A stretch of 64,000 nt of DNA. Source: Crocinitomicaceae bacterium. GTDB taxonomy: Bacteria; Bacteroidota; Bacteroidia; Flavobacteriales_D; Crocinitomicaceae. The notes beneath the pieces were generated by a model. The model saw nothing but the letters and a program-made list of their open reading frames with translations, did not search any database and was not told the DNA's origin. Location: NCBI GenBank assembly GCA_016708105.1, contig JADJGJ010000005.1, positions 14,432-78,431 on the forward strand. The letters run 5' to 3'. Positions 3,470-45,825 of the stretch are shown here, piece after piece (position 1 is the stretch's first letter; every line of letters starts with the position of its first letter). The translations under genes were made by a program, and so were the position numbers.

Positions 3470-4097
3470 CTGTTAATTCCAGTTTTTTAGCAATAACGGA
3501 GGTGAGTATATGAATATTTTCATCAAATGATTCATTATTGGTAATTACCAAATCAGAGGCATCTTTATGGGGCAGAATGAAATGGTGAAATGATGGCAAT
3601 ACATGATTTTTCCATTGATATAAAATCTGCGCTTCAGTATAATTGCGTTCATTCATATCTCTGCTTAGACGTCTCTTCAACTGCAATTCAGGTTCAACAG
3701 AGAGAAAAACTTTATAATCAAGCAGATCTTTTACAAAGGGATAGTGCATCACAAAAAGACCTTCAACTATTAGCAGTTCTTTAGGTTCAATGCGCGCTTT
3801 GTTTTTAGGTGCTTCAGGATTATTGAAGCCGTAAATATCATGTTCAATCACGTTGCCTTCAAGCAGATATTCAAGATCCATTTGAATGCGGTTTTGATCA
3901 AGTGCGGTTGGTAAATCAAAGTTGATCACACCATTTTCATCTACCCATTGATGTTCTTTTGGCAGGTAATAATTATCCAATGAAAAAGTAGAAACCCGGT
4001 TCTGGAATTCATGGTATAATTTCTGAATGAGTGTAGTTTTACCAACTCCGCTTCCGCCGGTAATACCAACTATAAATTTTATTTTTTGCTTATTCAC
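3453..4097 (-). CDS. udk: Uridine kinase
   Basis: P-loop GITGGSGVGKTTL with a uridine-kinase-like body. The frame is open to 4184, but GTG at 4097 (VNKQKIKFIVGITGG) gives the usual ~214 aa and leaves room for the divergent promoter box at 4164-4171. The stop overlaps the kinase start by 17 nt. Confidence 0.85.
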   Translation of the reverse strand: MNKQKIKFIVGITGGSGVGKTTLIQKLYHEFQNRVSTFSLDNYYLPKEHQWVDENGVINFDLPTALDQNRIQMDLEYLLEGNVIEHDIYGFNNPEAPKNKARIEPKELLIVEGLFVMHYPFVKDLLDYKVFLSVEPELQLKRRLSRDMNERNYTEAQILYQWKNHVLPSFHHFILPHKDASDLVITNNESFDENIHILTSVIAKKLELTDEPKV

Positions 4098-13555: not shown

Positions 13556-16500
13556 ATGCTCAGACGTATTTTTCTGTTCAATTTTAGTTTACTTTTTTCA
13601 TCCCTTGTTCTGGCGCAACATATTGAGCCGGAAAACGGAGTGCATGATCCGCATAATACTATTTATGTTTTGCAAAATGCACGGCTCGTGATCAGTCCTG
13701 ATCTCACGCTGCCTATAGGTACCTTGGTGGTGCAAGATGGTATCATTTTAAGTGCGGGTATTGATTTTGTAGCTCCATCAACTGCTGTGAAAATTGATAT
13801 GAGTGGGTACACCATTTATCCTTCATTTATTGAACTGTATTCATCAGCCGGTGTTGCAAATCCGGTTTATGCGTCAACAGGTTGGGGTCCGCAATTAGAA
13901 ACGCTCAAAGAGGGCCCTTTTTACTGGAATCAATCAGTGCATCCGGAAACAAATGCTTACGAATTATATAAGGATGCTGAATTTAAAGACAAAAAAGATT
14001 TTCTTGAGCAAGGCTTTGGCACTATAGCTGTTCATCAGGGAGATGGTATCATGCGCGGCACGTCGGCATTGCTCACGTTGTCATCAAATCCAACTGTTGA
14101 CAATGTAATTCAGGCTGAAGCTGCTAATCATTCTTCTTTCTCTAAAGGAAGCTCTAATCAAACTTATCCATCTTCTCAAATGGGAATTATTGCCTTGTTG
14201 CGTCAGTTTTATTATGATGCAAAATGGTACGCTGCTTTGACTGATCCAAATAAAGACAATGTTTCACTTCAACAGGGTCTTGCAAATTTTAGTCTGCCTC
14301 AAATTTTTGGAGTAGCTGATAAATTGGAAATTCTGCGTGCTGCTAAATTGGCAAAAGAGTTCAATATTTCTCTTATTGTAAAAGGCGGTGGAGATGAATT
14401 TGAAATGGTATCAGATATAAAAAATTCAGGAACGCAATTGATCATTCCAGTGAATTTTCCTGATCCGTATGATATGACTGATCCTTATCTGTCAAGATTT
14501 GTTTCTCTGAGACAATTGAAAGAATGGGAAATGCGCCCATACAATGCCTATATCTTATTTAAAAATAAAATTCCTTTTGCTTTTACGACTGACGGGTTAA
14601 AGAAAAAAAACCAATTTCTCACGAATGTTTCTGTTGCGGTAAAACATGGTTTACCTGAAGATGAAGCATTGCGCGCGCTCACCGTTAATCCTGCCAAATA
14701 CTTGCGTATGGAAAATAAATTAGGAACGCTGGAAAAAGGAAAATTTGCAAATTTTCTTGTTGTAAAAGGAGATATTTTTAACGGCGGTGAAATTTTTGAA
14801 AACTGGACTCATGGTGATCGTATCAGATTGAAAGATATTAATCAGCCTGATTATCGCGGAGAGTATTCATTAACCATCAGTGGTATTGTGTATGACCTTA
14901 TAATATCAGGTAAACACGCATCACCAACTGCAGAAATTATTGCTTATAAGTTTGTGAAAGATTCAAAAACCGGTTCAACTACAATTGATACCTTAAGGGT
15001 GAAACCTGAGTTCAAAGTTTCAGATATGCAATTGAGTATGATGTTTGAATTGCATGATGATAAAATTGATGGCATTGTTCAGTTGAATGGCTCGTATTAT
15101 CCTAAATTAGGCATTATGGAAGGTACCGGAACATTGCCTTCAGGGGCTTGGATTACTTGGGCAGCTAATCGCAGTGAAAAATTTAAAGAGAAGGATAAGG
15201 CAGAAAAAGTTCAGGTTGATACCTCTGGTGTAAAAAATGTGCGTTACCCGAATATGGCCTTTGGTTTTGATACCTTGCCAAAACAACGTCCGTACTATAT
15301 TAAAAACGCAACACTTTGGACTAATGAAGCCGAAGGTATTGTGCGCAATGGTAATTTGATTATTGAAGACGGAAAAATAAAATCAGTGAATGGTACAGCA
15401 TCAGTTCCTTCAGGCGCGGTTGTAATTGATGCTACTGGAAAGCATGTAACGTGTGGTATTATTGATGAACATTCGCACATCGCTATCAGCAAAGGGGTAA
15501 ATGAAGGAGGTCAATCCATTGCTAGTGAAGTGTCAATTGCTGACGTAGTGCGTAATGATGACATTAATATTTACAGACAACTAGCTGGTGGTGTTACTGC
15601 TGCGCAACTTCTGCACGGCTCTGCAAATCCTATTGGTGGACAATCTGCCCTAATCAAATTGAAATGGGGTTTTGCGCCTGAAGAAATGTTGATTGATAGC
15701 ACCGATGGATTTATCAAATTTGCTTTGGGTGAAAACGTAAAACAATCTAATTGGGGAGATCAAAGTGTGGTTAGATATCCTCAGACAAGAATGGGTGTAG
15801 AACAAATTTTCTACTCTGCTTTTATCAGTGCAAAAGAATATAAAGCAGCATGGGAAAAATATTATAATAGTTCTGAACGGCAGCAAGGCAAAATGGATCC
15901 TCCAAGACGTGACCTTGAGCTGGAAGCTTTGTGTGAAATTTTGGATAAAAAAAGATTTATCACCTGCCACTCCTACGTGCAAAGTGAAATCAATATGTTA
16001 ATGCACGTTGCAGATTCTATGGGATTCACGGTGAATACCTTTACACACATATTAGAAGGATATAAAGTGGCTGACAAAATGAAAGAGCATGGCGCAGGCG
16101 CTTCTACTTTTGCTGATTGGTGGGCTTATAAATATGAAGTGAATGAAGCCATCCCGTACAATGCTGCATTACTTGACCAAATGGGCATTGTTACCGCTAT
16201 CAATTCTGATGACGCTGAAATGGGTAGAAGATTAAATCAAGAAGCCGCAAAGGCGGTGAAATATGGTGGAATTTCGGAAGAAAGTGCCTGGAAAATGGTG
16301 ACACTAAATCCTGCAAAATTATTGCATTTGGATGATCGTATGGGAAGTCTGAAAGCAGGGAAAGATGCAGATATTGTTATCTGGTCAGATAATCCTCTTT
16401 CAGTAAATGCAAAAGTGGAACAAACTTTTATTGAAGGAATTTTGTTTTATGATGTGAACCGGAATTATAAATTGAAATTGCGCGATGAAGAAGACAGAAA

Positions 16501-18651: not shown

Positions 18652-18702
18652 TGTAGCGGGATTAAAAAAAATTTGGATTTTGACTCAAAAAATTTACTTC
18701 AT

Positions 18703-20340
18703 ATGAGAATAAAAAACTGGATACTAGCTGCAGTTATAATTTTTACAGGAGTTAACTTTAACTATGCTCAAACCTATAACATGGGTAATGGAACAATTAC
18801 TGCGTGTTCAGGTACTTTTTATGATAGTGGTGGTTCAGCAGGAAATTATTTGAGCTCAGAATTCTATACTCAAACAATTTGCTCTGGTACCCCTGGTAAT
18901 CCGGTCATATTGACTTTTACTTCTTTCAGCATTGAAAGTGGATATGATTTTTTAACTATTTATGATGGACCAACAACTGGTTCTCCTATCGTTGGAACCT
19001 ACACTGGTGCTGCCAGTCCCGGAACAATTACGGCGAGTGGTGAGTGTTTAACCCTGGTTTTTTCCTCGGATTTTATAATAGGGTATCCAGGATGGGCAGC
19101 AACAATTTCTTGTTCCACGCCACCTCCTCCACCGTGTGGGACTCCCGTAACTTTTAATTACACGGGAGGTGTTCAAAGCTATACAGTTCCTGCCGGTGTA
19201 ACTAGCCTTACAGTTGTGGTGGAGGGAGCACAAGGTGGTGGTCCTGGTGGATTGGGTGCAACTGTTACAGGAACAATTACTGTTACTCCAGGTCAGACTT
19301 TGCAAATTGTTGTTGGAGGTCAGGGTGGATGCCCTGCCGCAGGTTATGGAGGAGGAGGTTCAGGTCAAAATTCAAGCATTGCAGGATATCAAGGTTGCGG
19401 AGGAGGGGGAGCATCGTACATTTCCGCACCTCCGGGTGGAATGGCTAATGCGTTGATCGTCGCCGGCGGCGGCGGCGGAGACGGTGGCGGTGATGATTAT
19501 GGTGAGGGGGGTTATGGAGGATGTGCTTCAGGTGAAGCGGGGACAAGTCCTTTTGGTGTTGGTGGTGGTGGTGCAACAACTTCTGCAGGCGGAGCTGCTG
19601 GTCCGCCTTGGACTGCAGGAGGTGGATGGGGAGGCGCTGGAACTTTTGGTCAAGGTGGAGTTGGTGGAGTTGATATTAATTATGGCTATGCCCCAGGCGG
19701 CGGCGGCGGCGGCGGATACTATGGCGGCGGCGGCGGCGGTAGTGATAATATCAATATGACTACTCTTATTGGCGGTGGCGGCGGCGGTGGCGGTTCAAGT
19801 TTGGTTCCTTCTGGCGGGGGTTGTAATCCTGGTTCTAACACGGGTAACGGCTCAATCACAATCTACATTCCTACGCCAAACACAATGACCAGTCCAAGCA
19901 CCGCTGCTATTTGTAGTGGCGGAACTGTTAACATTCCTCTTACTAGCACTATTCCAGGTTCAACCTTCACTTGGGTTGCAACAGCAAATGGAAATGTTAC
20001 TGGTGAAAGCACTACTGTTCAAACTGCTTCAACACTAAACAACACCCTCACTAATACAACTTCATCAGTGCAGACAGTTACTTACACGGTTACACCCAGT
20101 TTCGGTGGATGTCCTGGAACGCCACAAACTGTTACAGTTACGGTGAATCCAATACCAACAGTAACCGACCCAGCCAACCAGACACTCTGTGCGAACACGG
20201 CAACTACAGCAGTAACATTCACGGGTACAGCAGGAGCTACATTCAACTGGACAAACAATACACCTTCAATCGGTCTTGCAGCAAGTGGAAGTGGAAACAT
20301 AGCATCATTTACAGCTATTAATGCAGGCACCACCCGGTAA
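18703..20340 (+). CDS. Giant T9SS adhesin, segment 1 of 4: signal peptide, CUB-like domain, glycine-rich domain, first PKD-like repeats
   Basis: ATG 18703 gives MRIKNWILAAVIIFTGVNFNYAQ. A CUB-like stretch follows (CSGTFYDSGG...YDFLTIYDG...LVFSSD), then a Gly-rich block (FNYTGGVQSYTVPAGV...GGGGGGYYGGGGGG). The segment ends at a TAA created by a 1-nt deletion at 20333-20335. Confidence 0.8.
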   Translation: MRIKNWILAAVIIFTGVNFNYAQTYNMGNGTITACSGTFYDSGGSAGNYLSSEFYTQTICSGTPGNPVILTFTSFSIESGYDFLTIYDGPTTGSPIVGTYTGAASPGTITASGECLTLVFSSDFIIGYPGWAATISCSTPPPPPCGTPVTFNYTGGVQSYTVPAGVTSLTVVVEGAQGGGPGGLGATVTGTITVTPGQTLQIVVGGQGGCPAAGYGGGGSGQNSSIAGYQGCGGGGASYISAPPGGMANALIVAGGGGGDGGGDDYGEGGYGGCASGEAGTSPFGVGGGGATTSAGGAAGPPWTAGGGWGGAGTFGQGGVGGVDINYGYAPGGGGGGGYYGGGGGGSDNINMTTLIGGGGGGGGSSLVPSGGGCNPGSNTGNGSITIYIPTPNTMTSPSTAAICSGGTVNIPLTSTIPGSTFTWVATANGNVTGESTTVQTASTLNNTLTNTTSSVQTVTYTVTPSFGGCPGTPQTVTVTVNPIPTVTDPANQTLCANTATTAVTFTGTAGATFNWTNNTPSIGLAASGSGNIASFTAINAGTTR

Positions 20341-21752
20341 CAGCAACTATTACAGTAACACCAACCTTGGGTGGCTGCACGGGCACTGCGCAAACATTTA
20401 CTATTACGGTGAATCCAATACCAACAGTAACCGACCCAGCCAACCAGACACTCTGCGCGAACACGGCAACAACTGCGGTAAACTTCACAGGCGCAATTGC
20501 AGGGACAACATATAACTGGACAAACAATACACCTTCAATCGGTCTAGCAGCAAGCGGCAGTGGAAACATAGCATCATTTACAGCCACCAACGCAGGCACC
20601 ACCCCGGTAACAGCAACTATTACAGTAACACCAACCTTGGCAGGCTGCACGGGCACTGCGCAAACATTTACTATTACGGTGAATCCAATACCAACAGTAA
20701 CCGACCCAGCCAACCAAACACTCTGCGCGAACACAGCAACTACAGCAGTAACATTCACGGGTACAGCAGGAGCTACATTCAACTGGACAAACAATACACC
20801 TTCAATCGGTCTTGCAGCAAGTGGAAGTGGAAACATAGCATCATTTACAGCTATTAATGCAGGCACCACCCCGGTAACAGCAACTATTACAGTAACACCA
20901 ACCTTGGGTGGCTGCACGGGCACTGCGCAAACATTTACTATTACGGTGAATCCAATACCAACAGTAACCGACCCAGCCAACCAGACACTCTGTGCGAACA
21001 CGGCAACTACAGCAGTAACATTCACGGGTACAGCAGGAGCTACATTCAACTGGACAAACAATACACCTTCAATCGGTCTTGCAGCAAGTGGAAGTGGAAA
21101 CATAGCATCATTTACAGCTATTAATGCAGGCACCACCCCGGTAACAGCAACTATTACAGTAACACCAACCTTGGGTGGCTGCACGGGCACTGCGCAAACA
21201 TTTACTATTACGGTGAATCCAATACCAACAGTAACCGACCCAGCCAACCAGACACTCTGCGCGAACACGGCAACAACTGCGGTAAACTTCACAGGCGCAA
21301 TTGCAGGGACAACATATAACTGGACAAACAATACACCTTCAATCGGTCTAGCAGCAAGCGGCAGTGGAAACATAGCATCATTTACAGCCACCAACGCAGG
21401 CACCACCCCGGTAACAGCAACTATTACAGTAACACCAACCTTGGCAGGCTGCACGGGTACTGCGCAAACATTTACCATTACAGTCAACCCAACACCAACA
21501 GTTACAGATCCGGCTGACCAGAGTATTTGTGCAGGAGGATCAACCACGGCGGTGAACTTTACCGGATCGATAGCCGGTACAACATATAACTGGACCAACA
21601 ATAACACCAGTATTGGCCTTGCGGCAAGTGGTACAGGAAATATTGCATCATTTATAGGAGTTAACGGTACTGGAGCTCCAATTACAGCAACAATAACGGT
21701 TACTCCAACCACAGGCGGCTGTACGGGAACACCACAGACTTTTACGATTACA
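20143..21752 (+). repeat. Six near-identical tandem 267/270-bp coding repeats (PKD-like units)
   Basis: Unit starts (GTGAATCC/GTCAACCC) fall at 20143, 20409, 20679, 20946, 21213 and 21483. Two sequence variants (TFTGTAGATF, 267 bp; NFTGAIAGTTY, 270 bp) are interleaved. Confidence 0.9.
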
Positions 21753-23393
21753 GTTACGCCAAATCCAGTGATTGCAGTTGCAGGCACCAACCCAACCATT
21801 TGTACCGGCACAGACGGAACCATAACGATCACGGGATTAGCAGCCAGCACGGCATATAGCGTGAGTTATACAGATGACGGCGTACCTGTTGGACCATTAG
21901 CGATGACCTCTAATGCGGGAGGTTCGATCGTGATAACGGGTCTTAATGCCGGAGCGTACACTAACTTCCAGGTGAGCATGGGATCATGTGTGAGCACGAG
22001 TGCGACGTTGATCACTTTAGTAGATCCAAACCCTCCAATGGTGAACGACCCAGCTGACCAAACACTCTGCGCGAACACGGCAACTACAGCAGTAACATTC
22101 ACGGGTACAGCAGGAGCTACATTCAACTGGACAAACAATACACCTTCAATCGGTCTTGCAGCAAGCGGCAGTGGAAACATAGCATCATTTACAGCTATTA
22201 ATGCAGGCACCACCCCGGTAACGGCAACTATTACAGTAACACCAACCTTGGCAGGCTGCACGGGTACTGCGCAAACATTTACTATTACGGTAAATCCAAT
22301 TCCAACAGTAACTGATCCGGCAGATCAAACTTTGTGTTCAGGCAATGCTACTACAGCGGTAAACTTTACCGGAACAGCGGGAGCAACTTTCAATTGGACG
22401 AATAACAATACAAGTATTGGTCTTGCAGCAAGCGGCAGCGGTAATATAGCATCATTCACAGCCACCAATGCGACAGCGCTTCCCATAACAGCAACTATTA
22501 CTGTAACTCCGGTATTGGGTCCATGTACAGGCACTCCACAAACATTTACTATTACGGTAAACCCAACACCAACGGTGACAGATCCGGCGGACCAGACTTT
22601 GTGTTCTGGCAACGCAACGACAGCGGTGAACTTCACAGGTACAGCGGGAGCCACGTTTAACTGGACGAACAGCAATACAGCGATAGGTTTAGCAGCGAGT
22701 GGCAGCGGTAATATAGCATCATTCACAGCCACCAATGCAACAGCGCTTCCCATAACAGCAACTATTACTGTAACTCCGGTATTGGGCCCATGTACCGGCA
22801 CTCCACAAACATTTACCATTACAGTCAACCCAACACCAACAGTTACAGATCCTGCAGATCAAAGTGTTTGTGCAGGAGGAACAACAACAGCTGTAAACTT
22901 TATGGGTACAGCCGGAGCGACATTTAACTGGACAAACAACAATACAGGCATAGGTCTTGCAGCCAGTGGCACAGGCAATATTGCATCATTTACGGGAATC
23001 AATGGCACAGGTGCGCCAGTAACGGCAACCATTACCGTGACTCCGGTACTTGGACCATGTACAGGTACCCCACAAACATTTACCATTACAGTGAATCCAA
23101 ATCCGGTGATTGCAGTTGCAGGCACCAACCCAACCATTTGTACCGGCACAGACGGAACCATAACGATCACGGGATTAGCAGCCAGTACGGCATATAGCGT
23201 GAGTTATACAGATGACGGCGTACCTGTTGGACCATTAGCGATGACCTCTAATGCGGGAGGATCAATAGTGATAACGGGTCTTAATGCCGGAGCGTACACT
23301 AACTTAAGTGAGCATGGGATCATGTGTGAGCACGAGTGCAACGTTGATCACTTTAGTAGATCCAAACCCTCCAATGGTGAACGATCCAGCTGA
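20367..23393 (+). CDS. Giant T9SS adhesin, segment 2 of 4: PKD-like tandem repeats
   Basis: These are ORF-track coordinates; the frame is actually open from about 20334 and continues the repeat interrupted in segment 1. It consists of 89/90-aa units (NPIPTVTDPANQTLCANTATTAV..NWTNNTPSIGLAASGSGNIASF..TATITVTP..C.GT.QTFTITV). Confidence 0.8.
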   Translation: MGGCTGTAQTFTITVNPIPTVTDPANQTLCANTATTAVNFTGAIAGTTYNWTNNTPSIGLAASGSGNIASFTATNAGTTPVTATITVTPTLAGCTGTAQTFTITVNPIPTVTDPANQTLCANTATTAVTFTGTAGATFNWTNNTPSIGLAASGSGNIASFTAINAGTTPVTATITVTPTLGGCTGTAQTFTITVNPIPTVTDPANQTLCANTATTAVTFTGTAGATFNWTNNTPSIGLAASGSGNIASFTAINAGTTPVTATITVTPTLGGCTGTAQTFTITVNPIPTVTDPANQTLCANTATTAVNFTGAIAGTTYNWTNNTPSIGLAASGSGNIASFTATNAGTTPVTATITVTPTLAGCTGTAQTFTITVNPTPTVTDPADQSICAGGSTTAVNFTGSIAGTTYNWTNNNTSIGLAASGTGNIASFIGVNGTGAPITATITVTPTTGGCTGTPQTFTITVTPNPVIAVAGTNPTICTGTDGTITITGLAASTAYSVSYTDDGVPVGPLAMTSNAGGSIVITGLNAGAYTNFQVSMGSCVSTSATLITLVDPNPPMVNDPADQTLCANTATTAVTFTGTAGATFNWTNNTPSIGLAASGSGNIASFTAINAGTTPVTATITVTPTLAGCTGTAQTFTITVNPIPTVTDPADQTLCSGNATTAVNFTGTAGATFNWTNNNTSIGLAASGSGNIASFTATNATALPITATITVTPVLGPCTGTPQTFTITVNPTPTVTDPADQTLCSGNATTAVNFTGTAGATFNWTNSNTAIGLAASGSGNIASFTATNATALPITATITVTPVLGPCTGTPQTFTITVNPTPTVTDPADQSVCAGGTTTAVNFMGTAGATFNWTNNNTGIGLAASGTGNIASFTGINGTGAPVTATITVTPVLGPCTGTPQTFTITVNPNPVIAVAGTNPTICTGTDGTITITGLAASTAYSVSYTDDGVPVGPLAMTSNAGGSIVITGLNAGAYTNLSEHGIMCEHECNVDHFSRSKPSNGERSS

Positions 23394-24627
23394 CCAAACA
23401 CTCTGCGCAAGCACGGCAACTACAGCAGTAACATTCACGGGTACAGCAGGAGCTACATTCAACTGGACAAACAATACGCCTTCAATCGGTCTTGCAGCAA
23501 GTGGAAGTGGAAACATAGCATCATTTACAGCTATTAATGCAGGCACCACCCCGGTAACGGCAACTATTACAGTAACACCAACCTTGGCAGGCTGCACGGG
23601 TACTGCGCAAACATTTACTATTACGGTAAATCCAATACCAACGCTAACCGATCCAGCGGATCAAACCCTTTGTGCAAACACGGCAACCACAGCAGTAACA
23701 TTTGTAGGTACCGCAGGAGCAACTTTCAACTGGACGAATAACAATACAAGTATTGGTCTTGCAGCAAGCGGCAGTGGTGATATCGCTTCGTTTACGGGAT
23801 TAAATCCAACACCTGGAACAACAGCAACCGCGACTATCACAGTAACCCCGGTATTAAGTGGATGCAGTGGTACTCCACAAACATTTACCATCAGTGTAAT
23901 TAATACCCTTCCAACGCTGACATGTCCGGGTAACCTCACGGCTGTATGTTCAATTACAGAACAACCGGCTTATGCAAACTATGCTGCATTTGTGGCAGCG
24001 GGAGGTTCATCCTCATCGGTGGGAGGCACCATCAATACGGCAAGTTTTACTTTGGTGAGCGAAGTATCAGATGGCAATACTTGTCCTGAAACAGTAACAA
24101 GGACATATAGTATACAAGATGATTGTGGCAGTACGGCAACGTGTACTCAAACTATTGTGATTAATGACAATATTAACCCAACAGCCACGGCCCCGGCAAA
24201 CATCACGGTTGAGTGCATAGGTGATGTTCCGGCCGCAGACCCAACGTTGATTACCGATGAAGCGGACAACTGTTCAGTACCGACAGTAGCTTTTGTAAGT
24301 GATGCAAGCGATGGCAACACCTGCCCCGAGACCATAACAAGAACTTATTCAATCACGGATGCATGTGGAAACACCATCACGGTAACACAAACAATCGTGG
24401 TAGATGATACAACTAATCCGACAGCATCAAACCCGTCAAGTATAACAGTTCCCGGAGGCCCAGCCCCGGCGCCGGATCCAACGGTTGTTGTAGATGAGGC
24501 AGACAACTGCACACTGAACCCAACGGTAGCCTTTGTAAGTGATGTAACGGACGGCAACTTGTGTCCTGAGACTATTACAAGAACGTATAGTGTAACGGAC
24601 AATTGCGGGGCAATCAAATTACGGTAA
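23308..24627 (+). CDS. Giant T9SS adhesin, segment 3 of 4
   Basis: It resumes the frame lost at about 23305 (VSMGSCVSTSATL..., as in the intact copy at 21970). It contains further PKD-like units and the first Cys-containing ~80-aa units (CPETITRTYS.TD.CGN). Confidence 0.8.
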   Translation: MSMGSCVSTSATLITLVDPNPPMVNDPADQTLCASTATTAVTFTGTAGATFNWTNNTPSIGLAASGSGNIASFTAINAGTTPVTATITVTPTLAGCTGTAQTFTITVNPIPTLTDPADQTLCANTATTAVTFVGTAGATFNWTNNNTSIGLAASGSGDIASFTGLNPTPGTTATATITVTPVLSGCSGTPQTFTISVINTLPTLTCPGNLTAVCSITEQPAYANYAAFVAAGGSSSSVGGTINTASFTLVSEVSDGNTCPETVTRTYSIQDDCGSTATCTQTIVINDNINPTATAPANITVECIGDVPAADPTLITDEADNCSVPTVAFVSDASDGNTCPETITRTYSITDACGNTITVTQTIVVDDTTNPTASNPSSITVPGGPAPAPDPTVVVDEADNCTLNPTVAFVSDVTDGNLCPETITRTYSVTDNCGAIKLR

Positions 24628-27600
24628 CGCAATTAATTTTGATTACTGATCCAATCATGCCAACGGCGTCAAATCCGGCTCCTGTTACAGTAGAATGTAT
24701 AGCAGATGTACCAGCACCGGACCCAACGGTGGTGATAGATGAGGCGGACAATAATGGAGTACCGACCGTTGCATTTGTGAGTGATGTATCAGATGGATTA
24801 ACTTGTCCAGAGACGATCACAAGAACGTATTCAGTAACGGACAACTGTGCCAATGTAATCACAGTAACACAAACTATTACGGTGAATGATATCACTAACC
24901 CAACGGGGACAGCCCCGGCAAATATTACTGTTCAGTGTATAGCAGACGTACCGGCGGCTGATGTAACGTTGATTAACGATGAAGCAGACAACTGCACAGC
25001 AAATCCGGATGTACAATTTGTGAGTGATGTGTCAGATGGTAATACTTGTCCTGAGACTATTACAAGAACGTATAGCATCACGGACGATTGTGGCAACAGT
25101 ATCAACGTAACCCAAACAATCGTTGTTGATGATACCACCAACCCAACCGCCACCGCCCCGGCAAACATCACGGTTCAATGTATAGCTGATGTACCTGTAT
25201 CTGACCCGACATTGATTACCGATGAAGCGGACAACTGTTCAGTACCGACAGTAGCTTTTGTAAGTGATGCAAGCGATGGCAACACCTGCCCCGAGACCAT
25301 AACAAGAACTTATTCAATCACGGATGCATGTGGAAACACCATCACGGTAACACAAACAATCGTGGTAGATGATACAACTAATCCGACAGCATCAAACCCG
25401 TCAAGTATAACAGTTCCCGGAGGCCCAGCCCCGGCGCCGGATCCAACGGTTGTTGTAGATGAGGCAGACAACTGCACGCTGAACCCAACAGTAGCCTTTG
25501 TGAGTGATGTAACAGATGGCAACTTGTGTCCAGAGACGATTACAAGAACGTATAGTGTAACGGACAATTGTGGTAATCAAATCACGGTAACCCAATTAAT
25601 TTTGATTACCGACCCAATCATGCCAACGGCGTCAAATCCTGCCCCTGTAACGGTAGAATGTATAGGTGATGTACCGGCAGCGGATCCAACGGTGGTGATA
25701 GATGAGGCGGACAATAACGGAGTACCGACAGTAGCCTTTGTGAGTGATGTATCAGATGGCAACACATGCCCAGAGACTATTACAAGAACGTACTCAGTAA
25801 CGGATGCATGCGCCAACGTGATACTGGTAACACAAACTATCACGGTGAACGATATTACTAACCCAACAGGAACCGCACCGGCGAACGTTACGGTGCAATG
25901 TATAGCTGATGTACCAGTGTCGGATGTCACCTTGATAACTGATGAGGCAGACAATTGCACGGCAAACCCGGTTGTAGCCTTTGTGAGTGATGTATCAGAT
26001 GGTAATACCTGTCCTGAGACCATTACAAGAACGTATAGTATCACGGATGATTGCGGAAACACGATCAACGTGACACAGACCATCGTGGTGGATGATACCA
26101 CCAATCCAACAGCGACAGCACCGGCAAACATTACCGTTCAGTGCATAGCAGATGTCCCTGCAGCAGACCCGACCTTGATTACCGATGAAGCGGACAACTG
26201 CTCAGTTCCAACAGTAGCTTTTGTAAGTGATGCAAGTGATGGCAATACTTGTCCTGAGACAATCACAAGAACGTACTCAATCACGGATGCATGCGGCAAC
26301 ATGATCACGGTAACCCAAACAATAGTTGTAGATGATACAACTAACCCGACAGCGTCAAACCCTGCAAGTGTAACAGTTCCCGGCGGACCTGTCCCGGCCC
26401 CGGACCCGACGGTGGTGATAGATGAGGCAGACAACTGCACGCTGAACCCAACGGTAGCCTTTGTAAGTGATGTAACGGACGGCAACTTGTGTCCTGAGAC
26501 TATTACCAGAACGTATAGTGTAACGGACAATTGCGGCAATCAAATTACGGTAACGCAAACCATTTTGATTACTGATCCAATCATGCCAACGGCGTCAAAT
26601 CCGGCTCCTGTTACAGTAGAATGTATAGCAGATGTACCGGCAGCAGACCCAACAGTAGTGATAGATGAGGCGGACAATAATGGAGTACCGACCGTTGCAT
26701 TTGTGAGTGATGTATCAGATGGATTAACTTGTCCTGAGACGATCACAAGAACGTATTCAGTAACGGATGCCTGTGCTAACCAAATCATGGTAACACAACA
26801 AATCATGGTGAATGATATTACTAACCCAACGGGGACAGCCCCGGCAAATATTACTGTTCAGTGTATAGCAGACGTACCGGCAGCTGATGTAACGTTGATT
26901 ACCGATGAAGCAGACAACTGCACGGCAAATCCGGATGTACAATTTGTGAGTGATGTATCAGATGGGAATACTTGTCCAGAGACTATTACAAGAACCTATA
27001 GTATCACGGACGATTGCTCAAATACGATCAACGTAACACAGACCATCGTTGTTGATGACACCACCAACCCAACCGCCACGGCCCCGGCAAACATAACGGT
27101 TGAGTGCATAGGCGATGTCCCTGCAGCAGACCCAACCTTGATTACCGATGAAGCAGACAATTGCACAGCAAATCCAACGGTAGCCTTTGTAAGTGATGTA
27201 AGCGATGGCAACACTTGTCCTGAGACCATTACAAGAACCTATAGTATTACGGATGACTGTGGCAATACGATCACAGTAACGCAAACTATTGTTGTAGATG
27301 ATACAACCAATCCAACGGCATCAAACCCGGCAAGCATAACAGTTCCCGGCGGTCCTGCCCCGGCGCCGGATCCAACGGTTGTTGTAGATGAGGCAGACAA
27401 CTGCACGCTGAACCCAACGGTAGCTTTTGTAAGTGATGTAACGGACGGCAACTTGTGTCCGGAGACTATTACAAGAACATATAGTGTAACGGACAATTGC
27501 GGCAATCAAATTACGGTAACGCAATTAATTTTGATTACTGATCCAATCATGCCAACGGCGTCAAATCCGGCTCCTGTTACAGTAGAATGTATAGCAGATG

Positions 27601-30497
27601 TACCAGCACCGGACCCAACGGTGGTGATAGATGAGGCGGACAATAATGGAGTACCGACCGTTGCATTTGTGAGTGATGTATCAGATGGATTAACTTGTCC
27701 AGAGACGATCACAAGAACGTATTCAGTAACGGATGCCTGTGCTAACCAAATCATGGTAACACAACAAATCATTGTGAATGATATCACTAACCCAACGGGA
27801 ACAGCCCCGGCAAATATTACTGTTCAGTGTATAGCGGACGTGCCGGCAGCTGATGTAACGTTGATTACCGATGAAGCAGACAACTGCACGGCAAATCCGG
27901 ATGTACAATTTGTGAGTGATGTATCAGATGGTAATACTTGTCCAGAGACTATTACAAGAACCTATAGTATCACGGATGATTGCTCAAACACAATCAACGT
28001 AACACAATTAATTATTGTTGATGACACCACCAATCCAACGGCGTCGAATCCGGCATCAGTGACGGTAGAATGTATAGCAGATGTACCGGCAGCAGATCCA
28101 TTGGTAGTGATAGATGAAGCAGACAACTGCTCAGTTCCAACAGTAGCTTTTGTGAGTGATGCAAGTGATGGCAATACTTGTCCTGAGACCATAACAAGAA
28201 CCTATAGTGTAACGGATAACTGTGGAAATACGATCAACGTGACCCAAACTATTGTTGTAGATGATACAACTAATCCAACAGCATCCAATCCGGCAAGTGT
28301 TACGGTAGATGTGATAGCCAATGTACCAGCAGCAGATCCATTGGTAGTGATAGATGAGGCAGACAACTGCACACTGAATCCAACGGTGACTTTTGTAAGT
28401 GATGTGTCAGATGGATTAACTTGTCCAGAGACGATTACCAGAACATATAGCGTAACGGATAACTGCGGTAATCAAATTACGGTAACGCAAACCATTATTG
28501 TATCAGACATCATTTTGCCAACGGCATCGAACCCGGCAGGGGTAACGGTAGAATGTATAGCAGATGTACCTGTGCCAGATCCATTGGTTGTGATAGATGA
28601 AGCGGACAATGGAGGAGTACCGACAGTTGCTTTTGTGAGTGATGTATCAGATGGCAATACCTGCCCTGAAACTATTACAAGAACATATAGTGTAACGGAC
28701 AACTGTGCCAACCAAATCATGGTAACACAGCAAATCATTGTGAATGATATTACCAACCCAACGGGAACAGCACCGGCGAATATTGCGGTTCAGTGTATAG
28801 CCGATGTACCGGTGGCTGATGTAACGTTAATTACAGATGAAGCAGACAACTGCACGGCAAATCCGGATGTACAATTTGTGAGTGATGTATCAGATGGGAA
28901 TACTTGTCCAGAGACGATAACAAGAACGTATAGCATCACGGACGATTGTGGAAATACAATCAACGTAACACAATTAATTATTGTGGATGACACCACCAAT
29001 CCAACGGCGTCGAATCCGGCATCAGTGACGGTAGAATGTATAGCAGATGTGCCGGCAGCAAACCCTGCAGTTGTTATCGACGAGGCCGACAACTGCACGG
29101 CATCACCACTTGTACAATTTGTGAGTGATGTATCAGATGGCAATACGTGTCCTGAGACGATTACAAGAACGTATAGTGTAACGGACAACTGCGGAAATCA
29201 AATCACGGTCACACAACAAATCATTGTGAATGATATCACCAATCCAACGGCATCTAACCCTGCCCCAATCAATGTATCATGTGCATCAAGTGTACCGGCA
29301 CCAAACGTATCGGTGGTGATAGATGAGGCGGATAACTGCACGGCATCACCGGTTGTAGCGTGGGTATCAGATGCATCAGACAACAACACCTGCAACGGAG
29401 AAATCATCACGCGAACATATAGCGTGACAGATAACTGCGGCAATCAAATTACGGTGACCCAACAAATTATTATTGGTGTAACCACACCGACAGTAAACGC
29501 AGGAGTTGATGTTACATTATGCGAAGGAGAAGTAGTCACCCTTACAGCAAGTAATCCGGATGCTGCGGTTATTAGCTGGGATAACGGAGTAATCAACAGC
29601 ACTGCATTCACGCCACCGGTGGGCACAACAACCTATACTGTAACGGCTACTCAATGTGGTGGAGAATGTTCATCAACCGATCAGGTAGACGTGGTTGTTA
29701 ATCCGCTTCCGGATGTGGTGTTTATGGGGGATGTTTTGATAGGGTGCGATCCGTTGACAGTAAACTTTACCAATCAAACAATACCTGCAGGTGACAATTG
29801 TACTTGGAATTTTGGAGACGGTAATGCAACGTCAGGATGTGGCTCGGTGAGCAATACTTACCTCACCCCAGGTGTTTATGATGTGAGTTTGACAGTGACA
29901 ACACTTGAAGGATGTACTTCATCAGCAAGCTATGCAGATTATATTACTGTAATAGCACAACCAGAGGCAAATTTCACCATGGATAATACAACAGTAACGA
30001 TAGACAGCCCGGTGGTACAATTCACCAATGAATCACTAAATGCAGATAATTATGTTTGGGATTTTGGAGATGGATCAGGTTCATTGCAAACAGATCCGGA
30101 GCATACTTTCCCTCAAATTGGAAACATGGAGTACACTGTAACACTGGTTGCATCAAACTATGCCGGATGTTCAGACACTGCAACAGCAACTATTGAAGTG
30201 CAGGATGTGTTGATTTTCTATGTTCCAAATGTATTTACACCTGACGGAGATGGTAATAATAATACGTTCTATCCGGTATTTACAGCAGGCTTTGATGCGT
30301 ATGATTATCACCTAACCATTTTCAACCGCTGGGGAGAGATTGTGTTTGAATCATACAACTCAACTGTAGGCTGGGATGGTACTTATGGAAGTCAAGGATT
30401 GGTGGAGGATGGAGTGTATGTATGGCAGATTGAATTTGGAGATAACAAATCAGACAAACGTCACCGTCACAGAGGACACGTAACAGTATTGAAATAA
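24603..30497 (+). CDS. Giant T9SS adhesin, segment 4 of 4: 20 Cys-repeat units, two PKD domains and a type B T9SS sorting domain
   Basis: Repeats carry ..DEADNC....V.FVSD.SDGNTCPETITRTYS.TD.CGN.I.VTQ.I. The PKD domains show WNFGDGNATSG and WDFGDGSGS. The C-terminus VPNVFTPDGDGNNNTFYPVF...FNRWGEIVFES...WDGTY...DGVYVWQIEF is the gliding-motility-associated (type B) CTD. Confidence 0.9.
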   Translation: MRGNQITVTQLILITDPIMPTASNPAPVTVECIADVPAPDPTVVIDEADNNGVPTVAFVSDVSDGLTCPETITRTYSVTDNCANVITVTQTITVNDITNPTGTAPANITVQCIADVPAADVTLINDEADNCTANPDVQFVSDVSDGNTCPETITRTYSITDDCGNSINVTQTIVVDDTTNPTATAPANITVQCIADVPVSDPTLITDEADNCSVPTVAFVSDASDGNTCPETITRTYSITDACGNTITVTQTIVVDDTTNPTASNPSSITVPGGPAPAPDPTVVVDEADNCTLNPTVAFVSDVTDGNLCPETITRTYSVTDNCGNQITVTQLILITDPIMPTASNPAPVTVECIGDVPAADPTVVIDEADNNGVPTVAFVSDVSDGNTCPETITRTYSVTDACANVILVTQTITVNDITNPTGTAPANVTVQCIADVPVSDVTLITDEADNCTANPVVAFVSDVSDGNTCPETITRTYSITDDCGNTINVTQTIVVDDTTNPTATAPANITVQCIADVPAADPTLITDEADNCSVPTVAFVSDASDGNTCPETITRTYSITDACGNMITVTQTIVVDDTTNPTASNPASVTVPGGPVPAPDPTVVIDEADNCTLNPTVAFVSDVTDGNLCPETITRTYSVTDNCGNQITVTQTILITDPIMPTASNPAPVTVECIADVPAADPTVVIDEADNNGVPTVAFVSDVSDGLTCPETITRTYSVTDACANQIMVTQQIMVNDITNPTGTAPANITVQCIADVPAADVTLITDEADNCTANPDVQFVSDVSDGNTCPETITRTYSITDDCSNTINVTQTIVVDDTTNPTATAPANITVECIGDVPAADPTLITDEADNCTANPTVAFVSDVSDGNTCPETITRTYSITDDCGNTITVTQTIVVDDTTNPTASNPASITVPGGPAPAPDPTVVVDEADNCTLNPTVAFVSDVTDGNLCPETITRTYSVTDNCGNQITVTQLILITDPIMPTASNPAPVTVECIADVPAPDPTVVIDEADNNGVPTVAFVSDVSDGLTCPETITRTYSVTDACANQIMVTQQIIVNDITNPTGTAPANITVQCIADVPAADVTLITDEADNCTANPDVQFVSDVSDGNTCPETITRTYSITDDCSNTINVTQLIIVDDTTNPTASNPASVTVECIADVPAADPLVVIDEADNCSVPTVAFVSDASDGNTCPETITRTYSVTDNCGNTINVTQTIVVDDTTNPTASNPASVTVDVIANVPAADPLVVIDEADNCTLNPTVTFVSDVSDGLTCPETITRTYSVTDNCGNQITVTQTIIVSDIILPTASNPAGVTVECIADVPVPDPLVVIDEADNGGVPTVAFVSDVSDGNTCPETITRTYSVTDNCANQIMVTQQIIVNDITNPTGTAPANIAVQCIADVPVADVTLITDEADNCTANPDVQFVSDVSDGNTCPETITRTYSITDDCGNTINVTQLIIVDDTTNPTASNPASVTVECIADVPAANPAVVIDEADNCTASPLVQFVSDVSDGNTCPETITRTYSVTDNCGNQITVTQQIIVNDITNPTASNPAPINVSCASSVPAPNVSVVIDEADNCTASPVVAWVSDASDNNTCNGEIITRTYSVTDNCGNQITVTQQIIIGVTTPTVNAGVDVTLCEGEVVTLTASNPDAAVISWDNGVINSTAFTPPVGTTTYTVTATQCGGECSSTDQVDVVVNPLPDVVFMGDVLIGCDPLTVNFTNQTIPAGDNCTWNFGDGNATSGCGSVSNTYLTPGVYDVSLTVTTLEGCTSSASYADYITVIAQPEANFTMDNTTVTIDSPVVQFTNESLNADNYVWDFGDGSGSLQTDPEHTFPQIGNMEYTVTLVASNYAGCSDTATATIEVQDVLIFYVPNVFTPDGDGNNNTFYPVFTAGFDAYDYHLTIFNRWGEIVFESYNSTVGWDGTYGSQGLVEDGVYVWQIEFGDNKSDKRHRHRGHVTVLK
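24631..28488 (+). repeat. Four tandem super-repeats of 963-966 bp, each made of four ~240-bp Cys-repeat units
   Basis: Equivalent boundary positions (after ACGGTAACGC/CCC) fall at 24631, 25594, 26557, 27523 and 28489. Long stretches are identical between copies. Confidence 0.9.
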
Positions 30498-30518
30498 AAA
30501 ACAAGCACAAAAAAGTTA

Positions 30519-30552
30519 AGAGGCTGCAGTTAAGTGCGGCCTCTTTTTATTT
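30519..30552 (+). terminator. Rho-independent terminator after the giant adhesin gene
   Basis: Stem AGAGGCTGCA (30519-30528) pairs with TGCGGCCTCT (30535-30544), followed by a TTTTTATTTT run. Confidence 0.7.
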
Positions 30553-30560
30553 TATATTTG
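30553..30560 (+). promoter_or_regulatory. -7 type promoter box TATATTTG
   Basis: TAnnTTTG lying 16 nt upstream of ATG 30577. Confidence 0.4.
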
Positions 30561-37258: not shown

Positions 37259-37409
37259 GTAAGTGCATTGTACTCCTTATTTTTTTGCAGCAGGTGCAGC
37301 AGGTGCAGCAGCTTTAGCAGCAGCTTTTTTAGGAGCAGCTTTCTTTTTAGGAGCAGCTTTTTTAGCAGCAGCTTTTTTAGGAGCAGCTTTTTTAGCAGCA
37401 GCTTTCTTT

Positions 37410-37583
37410 TTAGGAGCAGCTTTTTAGCAGCAGCTTTTTAGGAGCAGCTTTTTTAGGAGCAGCTTTTTTAGCAGCAGCTTTTTTAGGAGCAGCTTTTTTA
37501 GCAGCAGCTTTCTTTTTTGGAGCCGCTTTTTTTGCTGCAGCTTTCTTAGCTGGAGCTTTCTTTTTGGCTGTTGTTTTTGCCAT
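37410..37583 (-). CDS. Lys/Ala-rich histone-H1/AlgP-like basic protein; the ORF as it stands is truncated
   Basis: ATG 37583 gives MAKTTAKKKAPAKKAAAKKAAPKKKAAAKK.... The frame is lost at two A5 runs and ends ..KKLLLKSCS*. The same AKKAAP repeat continues in the DNA down to 37280. Confidence 0.7.
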   Translation of the reverse strand: MAKTTAKKKAPAKKAAAKKAAPKKKAAAKKAAPKKAAAKKAAPKKAAPKKLLLKSCS

Positions 37584-38107
37584 AGTTGAAAAAATTTTAA
37601 GGTGAGTATGGGTCAAATGTAAGGCGAATTTGTTTCCATGCTTATATATGAAAATCATTTCTCCAACAACGCATTGTTGAAAATGTGAATTACTGATACA
37701 CATTTTTTATACGCATCTGCAAAATTATTTTTTTCGCGCACCTTCTGAAACTATTTATTTTATTCATGTTTCAGCGCATAAAAATATTTTTATGCAAAAA
37801 ATATTTGGTATTTTTTTGGCTTGTGAAATATTATTTTTTCCTGTGGATAACTCATCAAAAATATTTTAAAAAAGTTTTCTGAAAGGCATTTTTATAACCC
37901 AAACAATTTCATTTTTATCATTTTCAGAATTCAATTTTAGATGAATTGACGAATTGAAATTTTCGTTGTCGCAAAAAAATCAAACTGGTTTTTCAGTCAC
38001 GCAAATAGAATGCAGGAATAGTTTTTAAACTCTCAGAATGCCTCACGTAAAATCAATTGATGTGATCTGCAGTGATGATAAACAGTGGGTTTAATGAAAT
38101 TCAGTAA

Positions 38108-39358
38108 TTAATTCAAAGACGCTACCACACTGATTTTAAAAACTGAAATTTGGTTTTGATGTTTAACATGTAGGGTATAAATTCCGGCTGGAATATTTGA
38201 AACATCTATTTGAGACATCTGATCAAAAGCAACGGAACTATAAATTAATTGCCCTGTCATATTCCTTAATTCCATTTCAATACCGTAATCAGAAATATCA
38301 TTTGAGTATGCAATTGAAATATTCAGATATTCAGATACCGGATTAGGCCAGCAGCTAATCAAATAATTTTCTTGCAGCCCCGGGCTTTCTATTCCGTTAT
38401 ACCCCCCAAATAAATACCAGGCAATATTGGTCCACGGACCCAGCACGGTGGCATAATTACTATAAATATATATGGTACCATCATCAGCGACGGCTGCACC
38501 CAGATCGGCAATTTTTGGATATGATGATTCTGTCAGGGTAGTTTCATCTTGCATAAAATAAATGGTATCAGCCGGACTTGTCCAAACCACTCCGTTGGTT
38601 GAAGTAGATGTTCTGAATCCTTCATCAAGGTATGTGAAGTACGCGTGCCATACTCCGCTTGAATCTTCAATTACAACCGGATCATGTGAATTGTCAAAGA
38701 GGGGAGTAAAATTTGAAAAGGTCAAACCCTCATCAAAAGAAACTGCGGTGTAAATTTTATCTGGCCCTGACGACATGGTGGTGTCTTTACCGGTTAATAG
38801 AGCTGAAACATTTCCGCCCTGATCAAAATAAAATTCTGAATGACCCACGTGGGTAAAATAACTTCCGGCAGTAAAAAACTCATTTGAGATGCGAACACCT
38901 TCTTTTGTAAAGTTGATACCATCATTAGAAATGGCAGAGCGAATATGATATTGCGGTTCAGCCGGTGGAATGTATTGTGGTGCGCACCGGTAAAACATTC
39001 TGTACTGTCCGCTGGTAAGTTTAATTACGCGTGCTCCACCAAGAACATATTCCGGGTCTGTAGTTGTTGATGACCCGGTCATGATCGTATCTTGGATAAC
39101 CCAGGTTTCCAAATCAGTTGATGTTGCATACGCTATGGCATCTTCATTGGTTGCGGCAAATTTGGTTGTATAATACATATAGTAGGTGCCGCCTATTTTT
39201 ATTATTTCAGACATGTAAGCTTCATCACACACTGCTGTTCCTGTTGTGGCATCTTCACCAATAGAAATTCCCTGATAAATATATTGTGGGTGTTGGGCAA
39301 AGTTGAGTACTGGTAAAAACAATACCGTAGTCAAAATGAGTTTATGTAAATAGTTCAT
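38108..39358 (-). CDS. Secreted BNR/Asp-box beta-propeller (glycosidase-like) protein with a type A T9SS C-terminal domain
   Basis: ATG 39358 gives MNYLHKLILTTVLFLPVLNFAQ. Asp-box-like motifs are STDLETW, SNDGINF and SFDEGLTF. The C-terminus is CWPNPVSEYLNISI...GIYTLHVK...FKISVV. Confidence 0.75.
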   Translation of the reverse strand: MNYLHKLILTTVLFLPVLNFAQHPQYIYQGISIGEDATTGTAVCDEAYMSEIIKIGGTYYMYYTTKFAATNEDAIAYATSTDLETWVIQDTIMTGSSTTTDPEYVLGGARVIKLTSGQYRMFYRCAPQYIPPAEPQYHIRSAISNDGINFTKEGVRISNEFFTAGSYFTHVGHSEFYFDQGGNVSALLTGKDTTMSSGPDKIYTAVSFDEGLTFSNFTPLFDNSHDPVVIEDSSGVWHAYFTYLDEGFRTSTSTNGVVWTSPADTIYFMQDETTLTESSYPKIADLGAAVADDGTIYIYSNYATVLGPWTNIAWYLFGGYNGIESPGLQENYLISCWPNPVSEYLNISIAYSNDISDYGIEMELRNMTGQLIYSSVAFDQMSQIDVSNIPAGIYTLHVKHQNQISVFKISVVASLN

Positions 39359-39445
39359 AGGGCAATCAGTTGATTGAAGAACCAATGTACTAAAGTTTGC
39401 GATAAGTAAAAATAATTACGTTGAAAAATGAGACATCAACTCACG

Positions 39446-43899: not shown

Positions 43900-44486
43900 T
43901 ATTTATAAAAGTTCATTTCATCAATATATTTTAACACGGGTTCACTGAGCAGGTAACGCACGTCTTTACGATCTTTGATAGCTGACCGAATAAAGGTAGA
44001 TGATAAATTCATAACCGGCGCTTGTATCATTTTTATACGTGCGTGTTCTGTCATGTTTTTTGAGTCATTTTCATTTTCCTGAACAACGCGTGGGTAAACG
44101 TACAAATCATAATTTTCAAGTATGTATTCATAGTTGCGCCACTTGTGAATGGTGCGCAAATTATCTTCTCCCATAATCAAACTGAAAATAATTTTTGGAT
44201 ATTTTTCTTTCAATGCCTGCAAAGTAAGAACAGTGTAAGATGGTTTTGGCAAATCAAATTCTATTTTGGAGACTTTTAGTTTTTGATTGTCTTCAACTGC
44301 CAGTTCTACCATGGCAAGCCGGTGATGGTCAGTGAGCAGGTTATTTTTATCTTTCAAGGGATTATGCGGCGATACAACAAACCACACTTCATTCAAATCA
44401 CTATAATTTGCCATGTGATTTGCAATGATCAAATGACCAATATGAATAGGGTTAAAGGTGCCAAAATATAAACCTACTTTTTTCAT
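43899..44486 (-). CDS. nadD: Nicotinate-nucleotide adenylyltransferase
   Basis: GLYFGTFNPIHIGHLIIAN (the (H/T)xGH motif) and a C-terminal SSTFIRSAI. Confidence 0.9.
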   Translation of the reverse strand: MKKVGLYFGTFNPIHIGHLIIANHMANYSDLNEVWFVVSPHNPLKDKNNLLTDHHRLAMVELAVEDNQKLKVSKIEFDLPKPSYTVLTLQALKEKYPKIIFSLIMGEDNLRTIHKWRNYEYILENYDLYVYPRVVQENENDSKNMTEHARIKMIQAPVMNLSSTFIRSAIKDRKDVRYLLSEPVLKYIDEMNFYK

Positions 44487-45061
44487 TTTTGAATAAAGTC
44501 TAAGGCAATTTGTTTTGCTTCAAGACATGCGTTTTCAAGGTTATCATTGAGTAAAATGCGGTCAAAAAAATCAGCACGGCTTAGTTCGCGATTAGCCTTT
44601 TCAATACGCATCTTGATGTTTTCTTCTGATTCGGTTCTTCTGTTTCTTAACCGTTGTTCAAGTACAAAAAGTGAAGGTGGTTTGATGAAAACAGATAAAG
44701 ATTTATCTCCAAAGATTTTTTTCAGATTTATTCCGCCCTCAGCATCAACATCAAATACAACAATCTTTCCTGCAGCCCAACTTTTTTCAATTTCTGATTT
44801 TAAGGTGCCGTAGAAATTGTCTTTATACACCTCTTGCCATTCAACAAATTCATCATTGGCAATTTTTTTCTTGAATTCTTCTACGCTGAAATAGTGATAA
44901 TCAACACCGGGAATTTCCCTACCTCTTGGTTCACGGCTACAAGCTGATACTGAAAATGAAAGCTGTGGAATTTCACGTAGCAGAAAATGCACAATGGTAG
45001 TTTTTCCCGCTCCGCTGGGGGCTGAGAAGATGATACATTTTCCTTCTGTTGAACTGTTCAT
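44483..45061 (-). CDS. gmk: Guanylate kinase
   Basis: ATG 45061 gives MNSSTEGKCIIFSAPSGAGKTTI, followed by TRxPRxxE-like SREPRGRE. It overlaps nadD by 4 nt. Confidence 0.9.
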   Translation of the reverse strand: MNSSTEGKCIIFSAPSGAGKTTIVHFLLREIPQLSFSVSACSREPRGREIPGVDYHYFSVEEFKKKIANDEFVEWQEVYKDNFYGTLKSEIEKSWAAGKIVVFDVDAEGGINLKKIFGDKSLSVFIKPPSLFVLEQRLRNRRTESEENIKMRIEKANRELSRADFFDRILLNDNLENACLEAKQIALDFIQK

Positions 45062-45212
45062 TTTTGCTGCCTGTTTGCTGATATTAGACAAAGATAGGTA
45101 TTTCACACGCAATTCAGGTTAGGGTGAGAATTTGAGTAACTAATTTCTAACTGCTTACACTATAGAAATTCAGGTCATTCTTTTTTAATAAATTAGCAAA
45201 AAAAATACGCTC

Positions 45213-45743: not shown

Positions 45744-45825
45744 TTGCTCCGTAACAAATAATAAGTATCCCCAATTTATTCCTCAAACCTGGTTAATCAC
45801 GCTGGTAATTGCTTACCTTTAGTTC

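Follow-up and report, generated by a model that had tools for sequence, protein, structure and literature searches.

A Single Giant Gene Presented as Four ORFs

The plus strand of the window (the whole 64,000-nt stretch of DNA that was analyzed) carries, between 18703 and 30497, four long open reading frames (ORFs): 18703-20340, 20367-23393, 23308-24627 and 24603-30497. It is essentially certain that these are one gene for a secreted cell-surface repeat protein. The best explanation for the whole, with a probability of about 0.78 as judged from sequence comparisons, is one giant surface-protein gene that was split by long-read consensus errors.

According to the ORF list and its translations, ORF1 to ORF4 lie in frames 1, 0, 1 and 0, as the original prediction had described (frame changes of 1 to 0, 0 to 1 and 1 to 0). 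The longest form of ORF1 is 18673..20340, with the called ATG start at 18703 (545 aa). The ORFs had also been proposed to join, on the same strand, within repeat units, and three-frame translation bears this out: at all three boundaries (J1, J2 and J3), the repeat unit interrupted in one ORF resumes in the next frame. In the protein, the joins read ...FTAINAGTT/PVTATITVTP... at J1, ...GLNAGAYTN(FQ)VSMGSCVS... at J2 and ...SVTDNCG/NQITVTQ... at J3.

Each junction was compared, by fuzzy matching, with the remainder of the gene, and the intact paralogous copies obtained in this way located the lesions. At J1, CACCCCGG has become CACCCGG through the shortening of a C4 run to C3, and the loss produces a TAA stop at 20338-20340. 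At J2, TTCCAGGTG has become TTAAGTG, with CCAGG replaced by AAG. At J3, GCGGCAA has become GCGGGGCAA, with GG extended to GGGG. The indels of -1, -2 and +2 that were proposed to explain the frame changes hold for J1 and J3, and J2 was refined to a 2-nt deletion plus a G>A substitution. Reversion of the three sites gives one ORF of 11,796 nt, exactly the length predicted, with a terminal stop only. The repaired product of 3,931 aa is ~396 kDa in size, with a pI of ~4 and a threonine content of 19% (composition).

Two further claims were that only the first ORF has a signal peptide and only the last a type B sorting domain of T9SS (the type IX secretion system). The former agrees with a hydropathy heuristic, as the maximum over 10 residues is 2.68 in ORF1, with its signal-peptide-like N-terminus, versus 0.86-1.97 in ORF2-ORF4. 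The latter is confirmed by matches to CHU_C/PF13585 and TIGR04131, found in ORF4 alone. A terminator had also been placed 3' of the last ORF, and a stem-loop with a T tail is present there. The coordinates of all features are collected in Table 1.

Table 1. Features of the giant gene and its three lesions, in window coordinates.
Feature	Position	Strand	Evidence
Whole gene, putative T9SS-secreted repeat surface protein	18703..30497	+	ORF list, repair, composition, sister assembly, homologue
Putative Sec-type signal peptide, MRIKNWILAAVIIFTGVNFNYA	18703..18768	+	Seen in sequence; hydropathy 2.68, heuristic
CUB domain	18772..19107	+	PF00431, 36.1 bits, E 9e-9
Glycine-rich domain (ALK/LTK GRD-like), sub-threshold	19219..19806	+	PF12810, 20.3 bits vs. 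Pfam cut-off of 24.5
PKD-like (PKD_5) array, ~89-aa units, contains J1 and J2	19906..23930, approximate	+	PF19406 matches
J1, C run of 3 (paralogues and sister strain: 4), -1	20333..20335	+	Junction matching, sister alignment
J2, AAG (paralogue and sister strain: CCAGG), -2 plus G>A, no homopolymer	23306..23308	+	Junction matching, sister alignment
HYR-like four-cysteine array, 23 units, contains J3	23930..29472, approximate	+	PF23237, TRTYS motifs, self-similarity
J3, GGGG (paralogues and sister strain: GG), +2	24607..24610	+	Junction matching, sister alignment
Two PKD domains	29700..30200	+	PF18911, 84 bits; PF00801, 47 bits
T9SS type B C-terminal sorting domain	30222..30488	+	PF13585 CHU_C, 56.6 bits; TIGR04131, 40.1 bits
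Intrinsic-terminator-like hairpin, 11 bp, 6 GC pairs, then T-rich tail	30518..30555 (stem-loop 30518-30545)	+	

The assignment to a single gene follows from three lines of evidence. Once repaired, the sequence forms a single ORF that has one signal peptide, one sorting domain and one terminator; J1, J2 and J3 are read through in the independently assembled strain of 99.6% identity; and a more distant Crocinitomicaceae metagenome-assembled genome (MAG) has an intact 3,752-aa homologue of the same architecture. All three support the earlier statement that the four-ORF picture misrepresents the biology.

Domain Architecture of the Encoded Protein

The putative signal peptide, recognized by a heuristic, displays a basic n-region, a hydrophobic core and an A-x-A-like end. 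It is followed by the CUB domain and by the sub-threshold glycine-rich domain; PF12810 is annotated in many homologues. The PKD-like array comprises about 12 or more units, on the basis of 12 NWTN motifs spaced by 89-90 aa. Two modules of ~90 aa, without a significant Pfam match, are interspersed in this array, and its exact repeats reach 321 nt. The HYR-like units measure 80-82 aa each and are marked by 23 TRTYS motifs, with a super-period of ~966 nt visible by self-similarity. PF23237 (HYR_4C) matches 20 stretches in ORF4 with 427 bits, and further matches are found in ORF3. Both sorting-domain models exceed their curated cut-offs (35 for TIGR04131 and 27 for PF13585) within the last 90 residues.

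On the minus strand, a 510-aa antisense ORF (20318-21850) lies wholly within the PKD-like array, with several shorter antisense ORFs beyond. It is most likely no gene, only a by-product of repeats without opposite-strand stops.

Comparison with a Sister Strain

The sole other protein in the 90% cluster of the ORF1 product is MBK8927269.1 (604 aa), encoded on contig JADJXZ010000007.1 of MAG Lyne_18-Q3-R50-59_BAT3C.421, hereafter the sister strain. The sister locus (L043/L044), with the same flanking genes, is 99.63% identical to window 8703-30515 (21.8 kb), from which it differs by 75 substitutions and four indel events, all four within the giant gene. The sister reads CCCC, CCAGG and GG at J1, J2 and J3, i.e., it is intact at all three. 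Unlike the window gene, it is split by a different, single indel, a change of G3 to G4 (+1 G) located 37 nt downstream of J1, at the equivalent of window 20369, where the window is intact; the sister gene is hence called as 604 + 3,362 aa. When the private indels of each assembly are reverted, both genes measure exactly 11,796 nt, so that the repeat count is reproduced between the assemblies; for the species, this comparison comprises one independent assembly, the sister contig. Between the two repaired genes there are 15 substitutions, of which 11 are synonymous and 4 non-synonymous (three of the latter adjoin the sister's own indel); this corresponds to a pN/pS of 0.12 (P = 1.3e-4 vs. neutrality). 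Synonymous changes are present downstream of every shift.

J1 and J3 are located in or beside long exact repeats. An exact-repeat search placed J1 inside a perfect 516-nt duplicate (20138-20653 = 20941-21457). Within the window, the C missing at J1 is the sole difference between the two copies over 516 nt; in the sister strain, the first copy is distinguished from the second by five substitutions and the extra G. Such a pattern suggests that gene conversion took place in the window strain, or that one of the assemblies was mis-polished or has a poor consensus here.

A second sister block, aligned with window 35217-55743, is 99.78% identical, with 40 substitutions and four indel events. Over the total of 42.3 kb compared, seven of the eight indel events fall in two repeat genes accounting for 29% of the length (binomial P = 1e-3), and six of these seven are out of frame. 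No indels between window and sister were found in ~30 kb of unique coding sequence. The sole indel outside the repeat genes in the 42 kb is an intergenic T7 run at 36959, which is T6 in the sister. Repeat-unit gain or loss, the usual outcome of real slippage in tandem repeats, was not seen in the giant gene between window and sister.

A tandem-repeat gene on the minus strand at 37268-37703 (sister locus L045, 2060-2491) codes for a lysine/alanine-rich (AKKAAPKK)n protein. It contains three indel events within 25 nt (37426, 37435 and 37450), located in T5/T6 runs and consisting of two 1-nt deletions and one 3-nt deletion in the window. In the sister this gene is uninterrupted, whereas a frameshift truncates it in the window (...KKAAPKKLLLKSCS*). 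The composition of the lysine/alanine-repeat protein (MAKTTAKKKAPAKKAAAKK...) is histone H1-like.

In two metagenome scans, no contigs were found across J2 (copy-2-specific pattern, either length allowed) or across J3 (pattern allowing either length). Look-ups by exact product for ORF1 (with both starts), ORF4 and two neighboring genes gave no match in an index that omits the window's own contig. Look-ups of the upstream 151-aa protein and the downstream 176-aa protein returned only the sister contig, plus one 2-kb Logan contig. The latter, from an unrelated public run (SRR26424858, locus L046), is 97.5% identical to window 44275-46293, so that at least one further data set contains a related population.

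The substitutions in the flanks are unevenly distributed: 27 of 59 versus the sister are clustered at 15244-15649, within ~400 nt of a gene for a 1,048-aa amidohydrolase, mostly spaced in multiples of three. The clustering resembles what a short tract recombined from a more divergent lineage would leave.

Relatives and Known Systems

An intact relative from outside the species is the 3,752-aa homologue, encoded by one uninterrupted ORF in Crocinitomicaceae MAG contig JADJEU010000002.1 (locus L003, 10001-21259). It is 63-75% identical to the window protein over residues 424-3931 and 57% identical over the first 143. The order of the modules is that of the window protein: CUB, PKD_5, HYR_4C (17 times), PKD and CHU_C. 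It differs in having fewer repeats and, instead of the glycine-rich domain, a pair of CUB domains together with a PKD and a proprotein-convertase P domain. The flanking ORFs also differ from those of the window in size and order.

Repeat proteins with a CHU_C domain ('gliding motility-associated C-terminal domain') occur in Cytophaga, Fluviicola and Crocinitomix. Hundreds of homologues have the glycine-rich domain or the HYR_4C-PKD-CHU_C tail in common, and the CHU_C homologues are named gliding motility-associated-like or PKD domain-containing in their sources. Unlike the window protein, most of these database entries are partial fragments of 400-950 aa. No characterized protein was present among the CHU_C homologue matches listed. 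The search with the C-terminal 420 aa listed matches of up to ~730 aa, and neither the window ORF of 1,964 aa nor the sister ORF of 3,362 aa was among them, a length range that could not reveal a third full-length copy, and a scan of genome contigs for relatives returned only more distant ones.

Frameshifts in repeats also break homologues in two other metagenome assemblies, and homopolymer length is involved in the one checked at the nucleotide level. Another Crocinitomicaceae species, from the project of the sister MAG (JADJYC010000008.1, locus L001, 5357-14367), has a homologous giant gene in which a frameshift at ~8671, inside a PKD-like repeat, leaves products of 1,070 + 1,843 aa. In a 74%-identical homologue (JGI 3300056855, Ga0569291_06436; locus L047, 4560-5182), consecutive repeat copies close to the end of the contig contain two frameshifts, one a change of A2 to A3 (GGAACC to GGAAACC) and the next, apparently, of C4 to C5.

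SprB of Flavobacterium johnsoniae, a giant gliding-motility adhesin, is the T9SS type B CTD cargo to which the window protein can be compared. Both are very large, repetitive Bacteroidota proteins that carry a signal peptide at the N-terminus and a type B sorting domain of the TIGR04131/CHU_C kind. Unlike those of SprB, the repeats of the window protein are of the PKD_5 and HYR_4C types, and its head consists of CUB and glycine-rich domains; the SprB repeat (PF13573) gave no match in ORF1-ORF4 at E <= 0.01. Also unlike SprB, no sprF/PorP-like gene was found among the seven scanned neighbors. The window gene is no SprB orthologue. The biology of type B CTD cargo has been treated elsewhere (PMC9143113 and PMC12618676).

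Cause of the Split

The window contig spans 23 near-identical repeats, which speaks for an origin from long reads. Judging from this repeat-crossing contig and from the conspecific MAGs, the window's assembly appears to be of Nanopore type. The sister MAG comes from the activated-sludge genomes that Singleton et al. 2021 (PMC8012365) recovered in Denmark, which were produced with Canu on Nanopore reads, followed by Racon, two rounds of medaka and one round of Racon with Illumina reads. Its coverage was 11.6x Illumina and 14.9x Nanopore (PMC8012365), and that of the conspecific MAG Damh_18-Q3-R51-60_BAT3C.266 (JADJGJ) was 20.8x Illumina and 19.8x Nanopore (PMC8012365, Supplementary Data 3). Another study (PMC9262707) gives homopolymer indels as the residual error of Nanopore-type assemblies, for which short-read polishing is needed.

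J1, J2 and J3 are probably unpolished consensus errors in repeats. Three length errors of 1-2 nt in a low-coverage Nanopore-type metagenome consensus would suffice to split the gene into four ORFs. They may have outlived short-read polishing because the near-identical repeats block the unique placement of short reads; exact repeats of 200-500 nt in the gene make such placement impossible. This cause is favored because the indels are private to each assembly, because they occur in repeats, yet the repeat count is unchanged, and because the repaired frame is under strong purifying selection. On the same grounds, the original prediction's choice of an assembly or consensus problem as the likelier cause is the best supported one.

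Several points weigh against consensus error. J2 (CCAGG to AAG) is the weakest point of this explanation, as it is not a homopolymer and no systematic error model fits. J3 is a +2 in a run of just two G, which exceeds a typical miscall. Real indels likewise favor repeats and homopolymers, and the assemblies represent different strains (~0.2-0.4% substitutions), which may carry private real mutations. A base-calling error at a CCWGG methylation motif was considered for J2 but finds no support: the window retains all 12 other CCWGG sites of the gene, against 13 in the sister.

The split could instead reflect a real, very recent pseudogene, with at least one of the three indels genuine (J2 being the most plausible) and the sister carrying an independent frameshift of its own, but we consider this unlikely. 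The window and the sister do represent separate strains (75 substitutions in the first block and 40 in the second), the complex J2 does not fit a simple base-calling error, and giant surface proteins are often lost or varied under phage or predation pressure. However, no further decay is visible, the repaired frames being stop-free over 11.8 kb with a pN/pS of 0.12. Moreover, each indel occurs in one assembly only, two of them lie within 37 nt inside the perfect 516-nt duplicate, the unrelated lysine/alanine-repeat gene in the same window is broken likewise and the ~30 kb of unique sequence contain zero indels. Independent confirmation together with relaxed constraint, the pattern of a pseudogene, was not observed, as the sister has neither the J1-J3 indels nor extra stops. 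A related proposal seems doubtful: the indels would be real and strain-specific, and populations would be polymorphic for the on or off state of a giant T9SS adhesin, with phages or grazing as a conceivable driver. If true, activated-sludge Crocinitomicaceae would repeatedly disable a 396-kDa surface protein via frameshifts in its first repeats, two strains having been hit within 37 nt of each other.

Regulated expression, in which phase-variable slipped-strand switching or programmed ribosomal frameshifting leads to the full-length protein, is highly improbable. G or C runs do occur at two of the sites and surface adhesins are classic contingency genes, but the runs are merely 2-4 nt long (C3/C4 and G2/G4), whereas contingency tracts usually count 7 nt or more, and J2 lacks a repeat tract. 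There is no X XXY YYZ slippery heptamer at J1, and neither the 99.6%-identical strain nor the 3,752-aa homologue has the shifts, which are thus not conserved. Three shifts of differing sign would, furthermore, all need decoding. Phase variation and programmed frameshifting were thus both rejected on tract length, the lack of a slippery motif and the lack of conservation. Hardly any weight is left for four separate genes, or for a mis-joined or collapsed repeat assembly with a wrong large-scale structure. The former has the gene caller's annotation on its side, with products of 545 aa and 417 aa on record. Signal peptides or starts of their own, which the original prediction had named as evidence against a single gene, are absent from ORF2-ORF4, which start mid-repeat without a signal peptide or a plausible start context. 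As for the large-scale structure, an independent long-read assembly gives the same 11,796 nt base for base, 15 substitutions aside.

Secretion, Display and Likely Role

The window gene, as a single gene with its frame repaired, probably encodes a T9SS-exported, surface-displayed repeat protein, for which the domains suggest an adhesive role. It carries a sorting domain above the cut-offs and, by the heuristic, a signal peptide, as T9SS type B CTD cargo does. The Sec signal peptide would take the protein to the periplasm, from where the C-terminal type B sorting domain would route it through the type IX secretion system. The protein may then be displayed on the surface as a long, acidic, threonine-rich stalk, with a CUB and glycine-rich head, about 12 or more PKD-like repeats and, then, 23 HYR-like Ig-type repeats.

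The organism probably uses type IX secretion, since PorZ-like and type A sorting-tail proteins are encoded; the core T9SS genes (SprA/Sov and GldKLMN) lie outside the window. According to precomputed Pfam matches at the identical sister locus, window 51656-53956 encodes a PorZ_N beta-propeller (PorZ-like) protein, and 38108-39385 encodes one with a type A CTD (Por_Secre_tail).

A PorP/SprF-like outer-membrane partner beside the cargo gene is common, though not universal (PMC9143113). No such gene was found by a Pfam scan among two upstream and five downstream neighbors, and PorP_SprF was absent from the called genes with precomputed Pfam matches at the sister loci. The two upstream genes scanned are amidohydrolases; no Pfam match was obtained for the upstream gene of 151 aa, the downstream gene of 189 aa or a gene of 260 aa, and the remaining neighbors comprise a C1 peptidase, an HU/SPOR protein and a gene with a weak match to MORN. 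At the left end of the window, a minus-strand ORF of more than 1,157 aa (2-3472) extends past the boundary.

Implications

The contig annotation lists four hypothetical proteins where one 3,931-aa T9SS surface protein stands, and the same mis-splitting affects homologues in at least three other metagenome assemblies. As these homologues are also split, catalogues of T9SS cargo, adhesins or 'pseudogenes' drawn from long-read MAGs miscount such genes: short-read polishing fails exactly in repeat-rich genes. The main value of the finding is, thus, practical and concerns the annotation of repeat genes in long-read MAGs; it raises no new biological question. Giant repeat proteins with a T9SS type B CTD are already well known from Flavobacteriales, and the window gene is an ordinary further example. 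To these, it adds one uncharacterized giant type B CTD protein of the PKD-like/HYR-like kind, from a species of the Crocinitomicaceae that lives uncultured in activated sludge.
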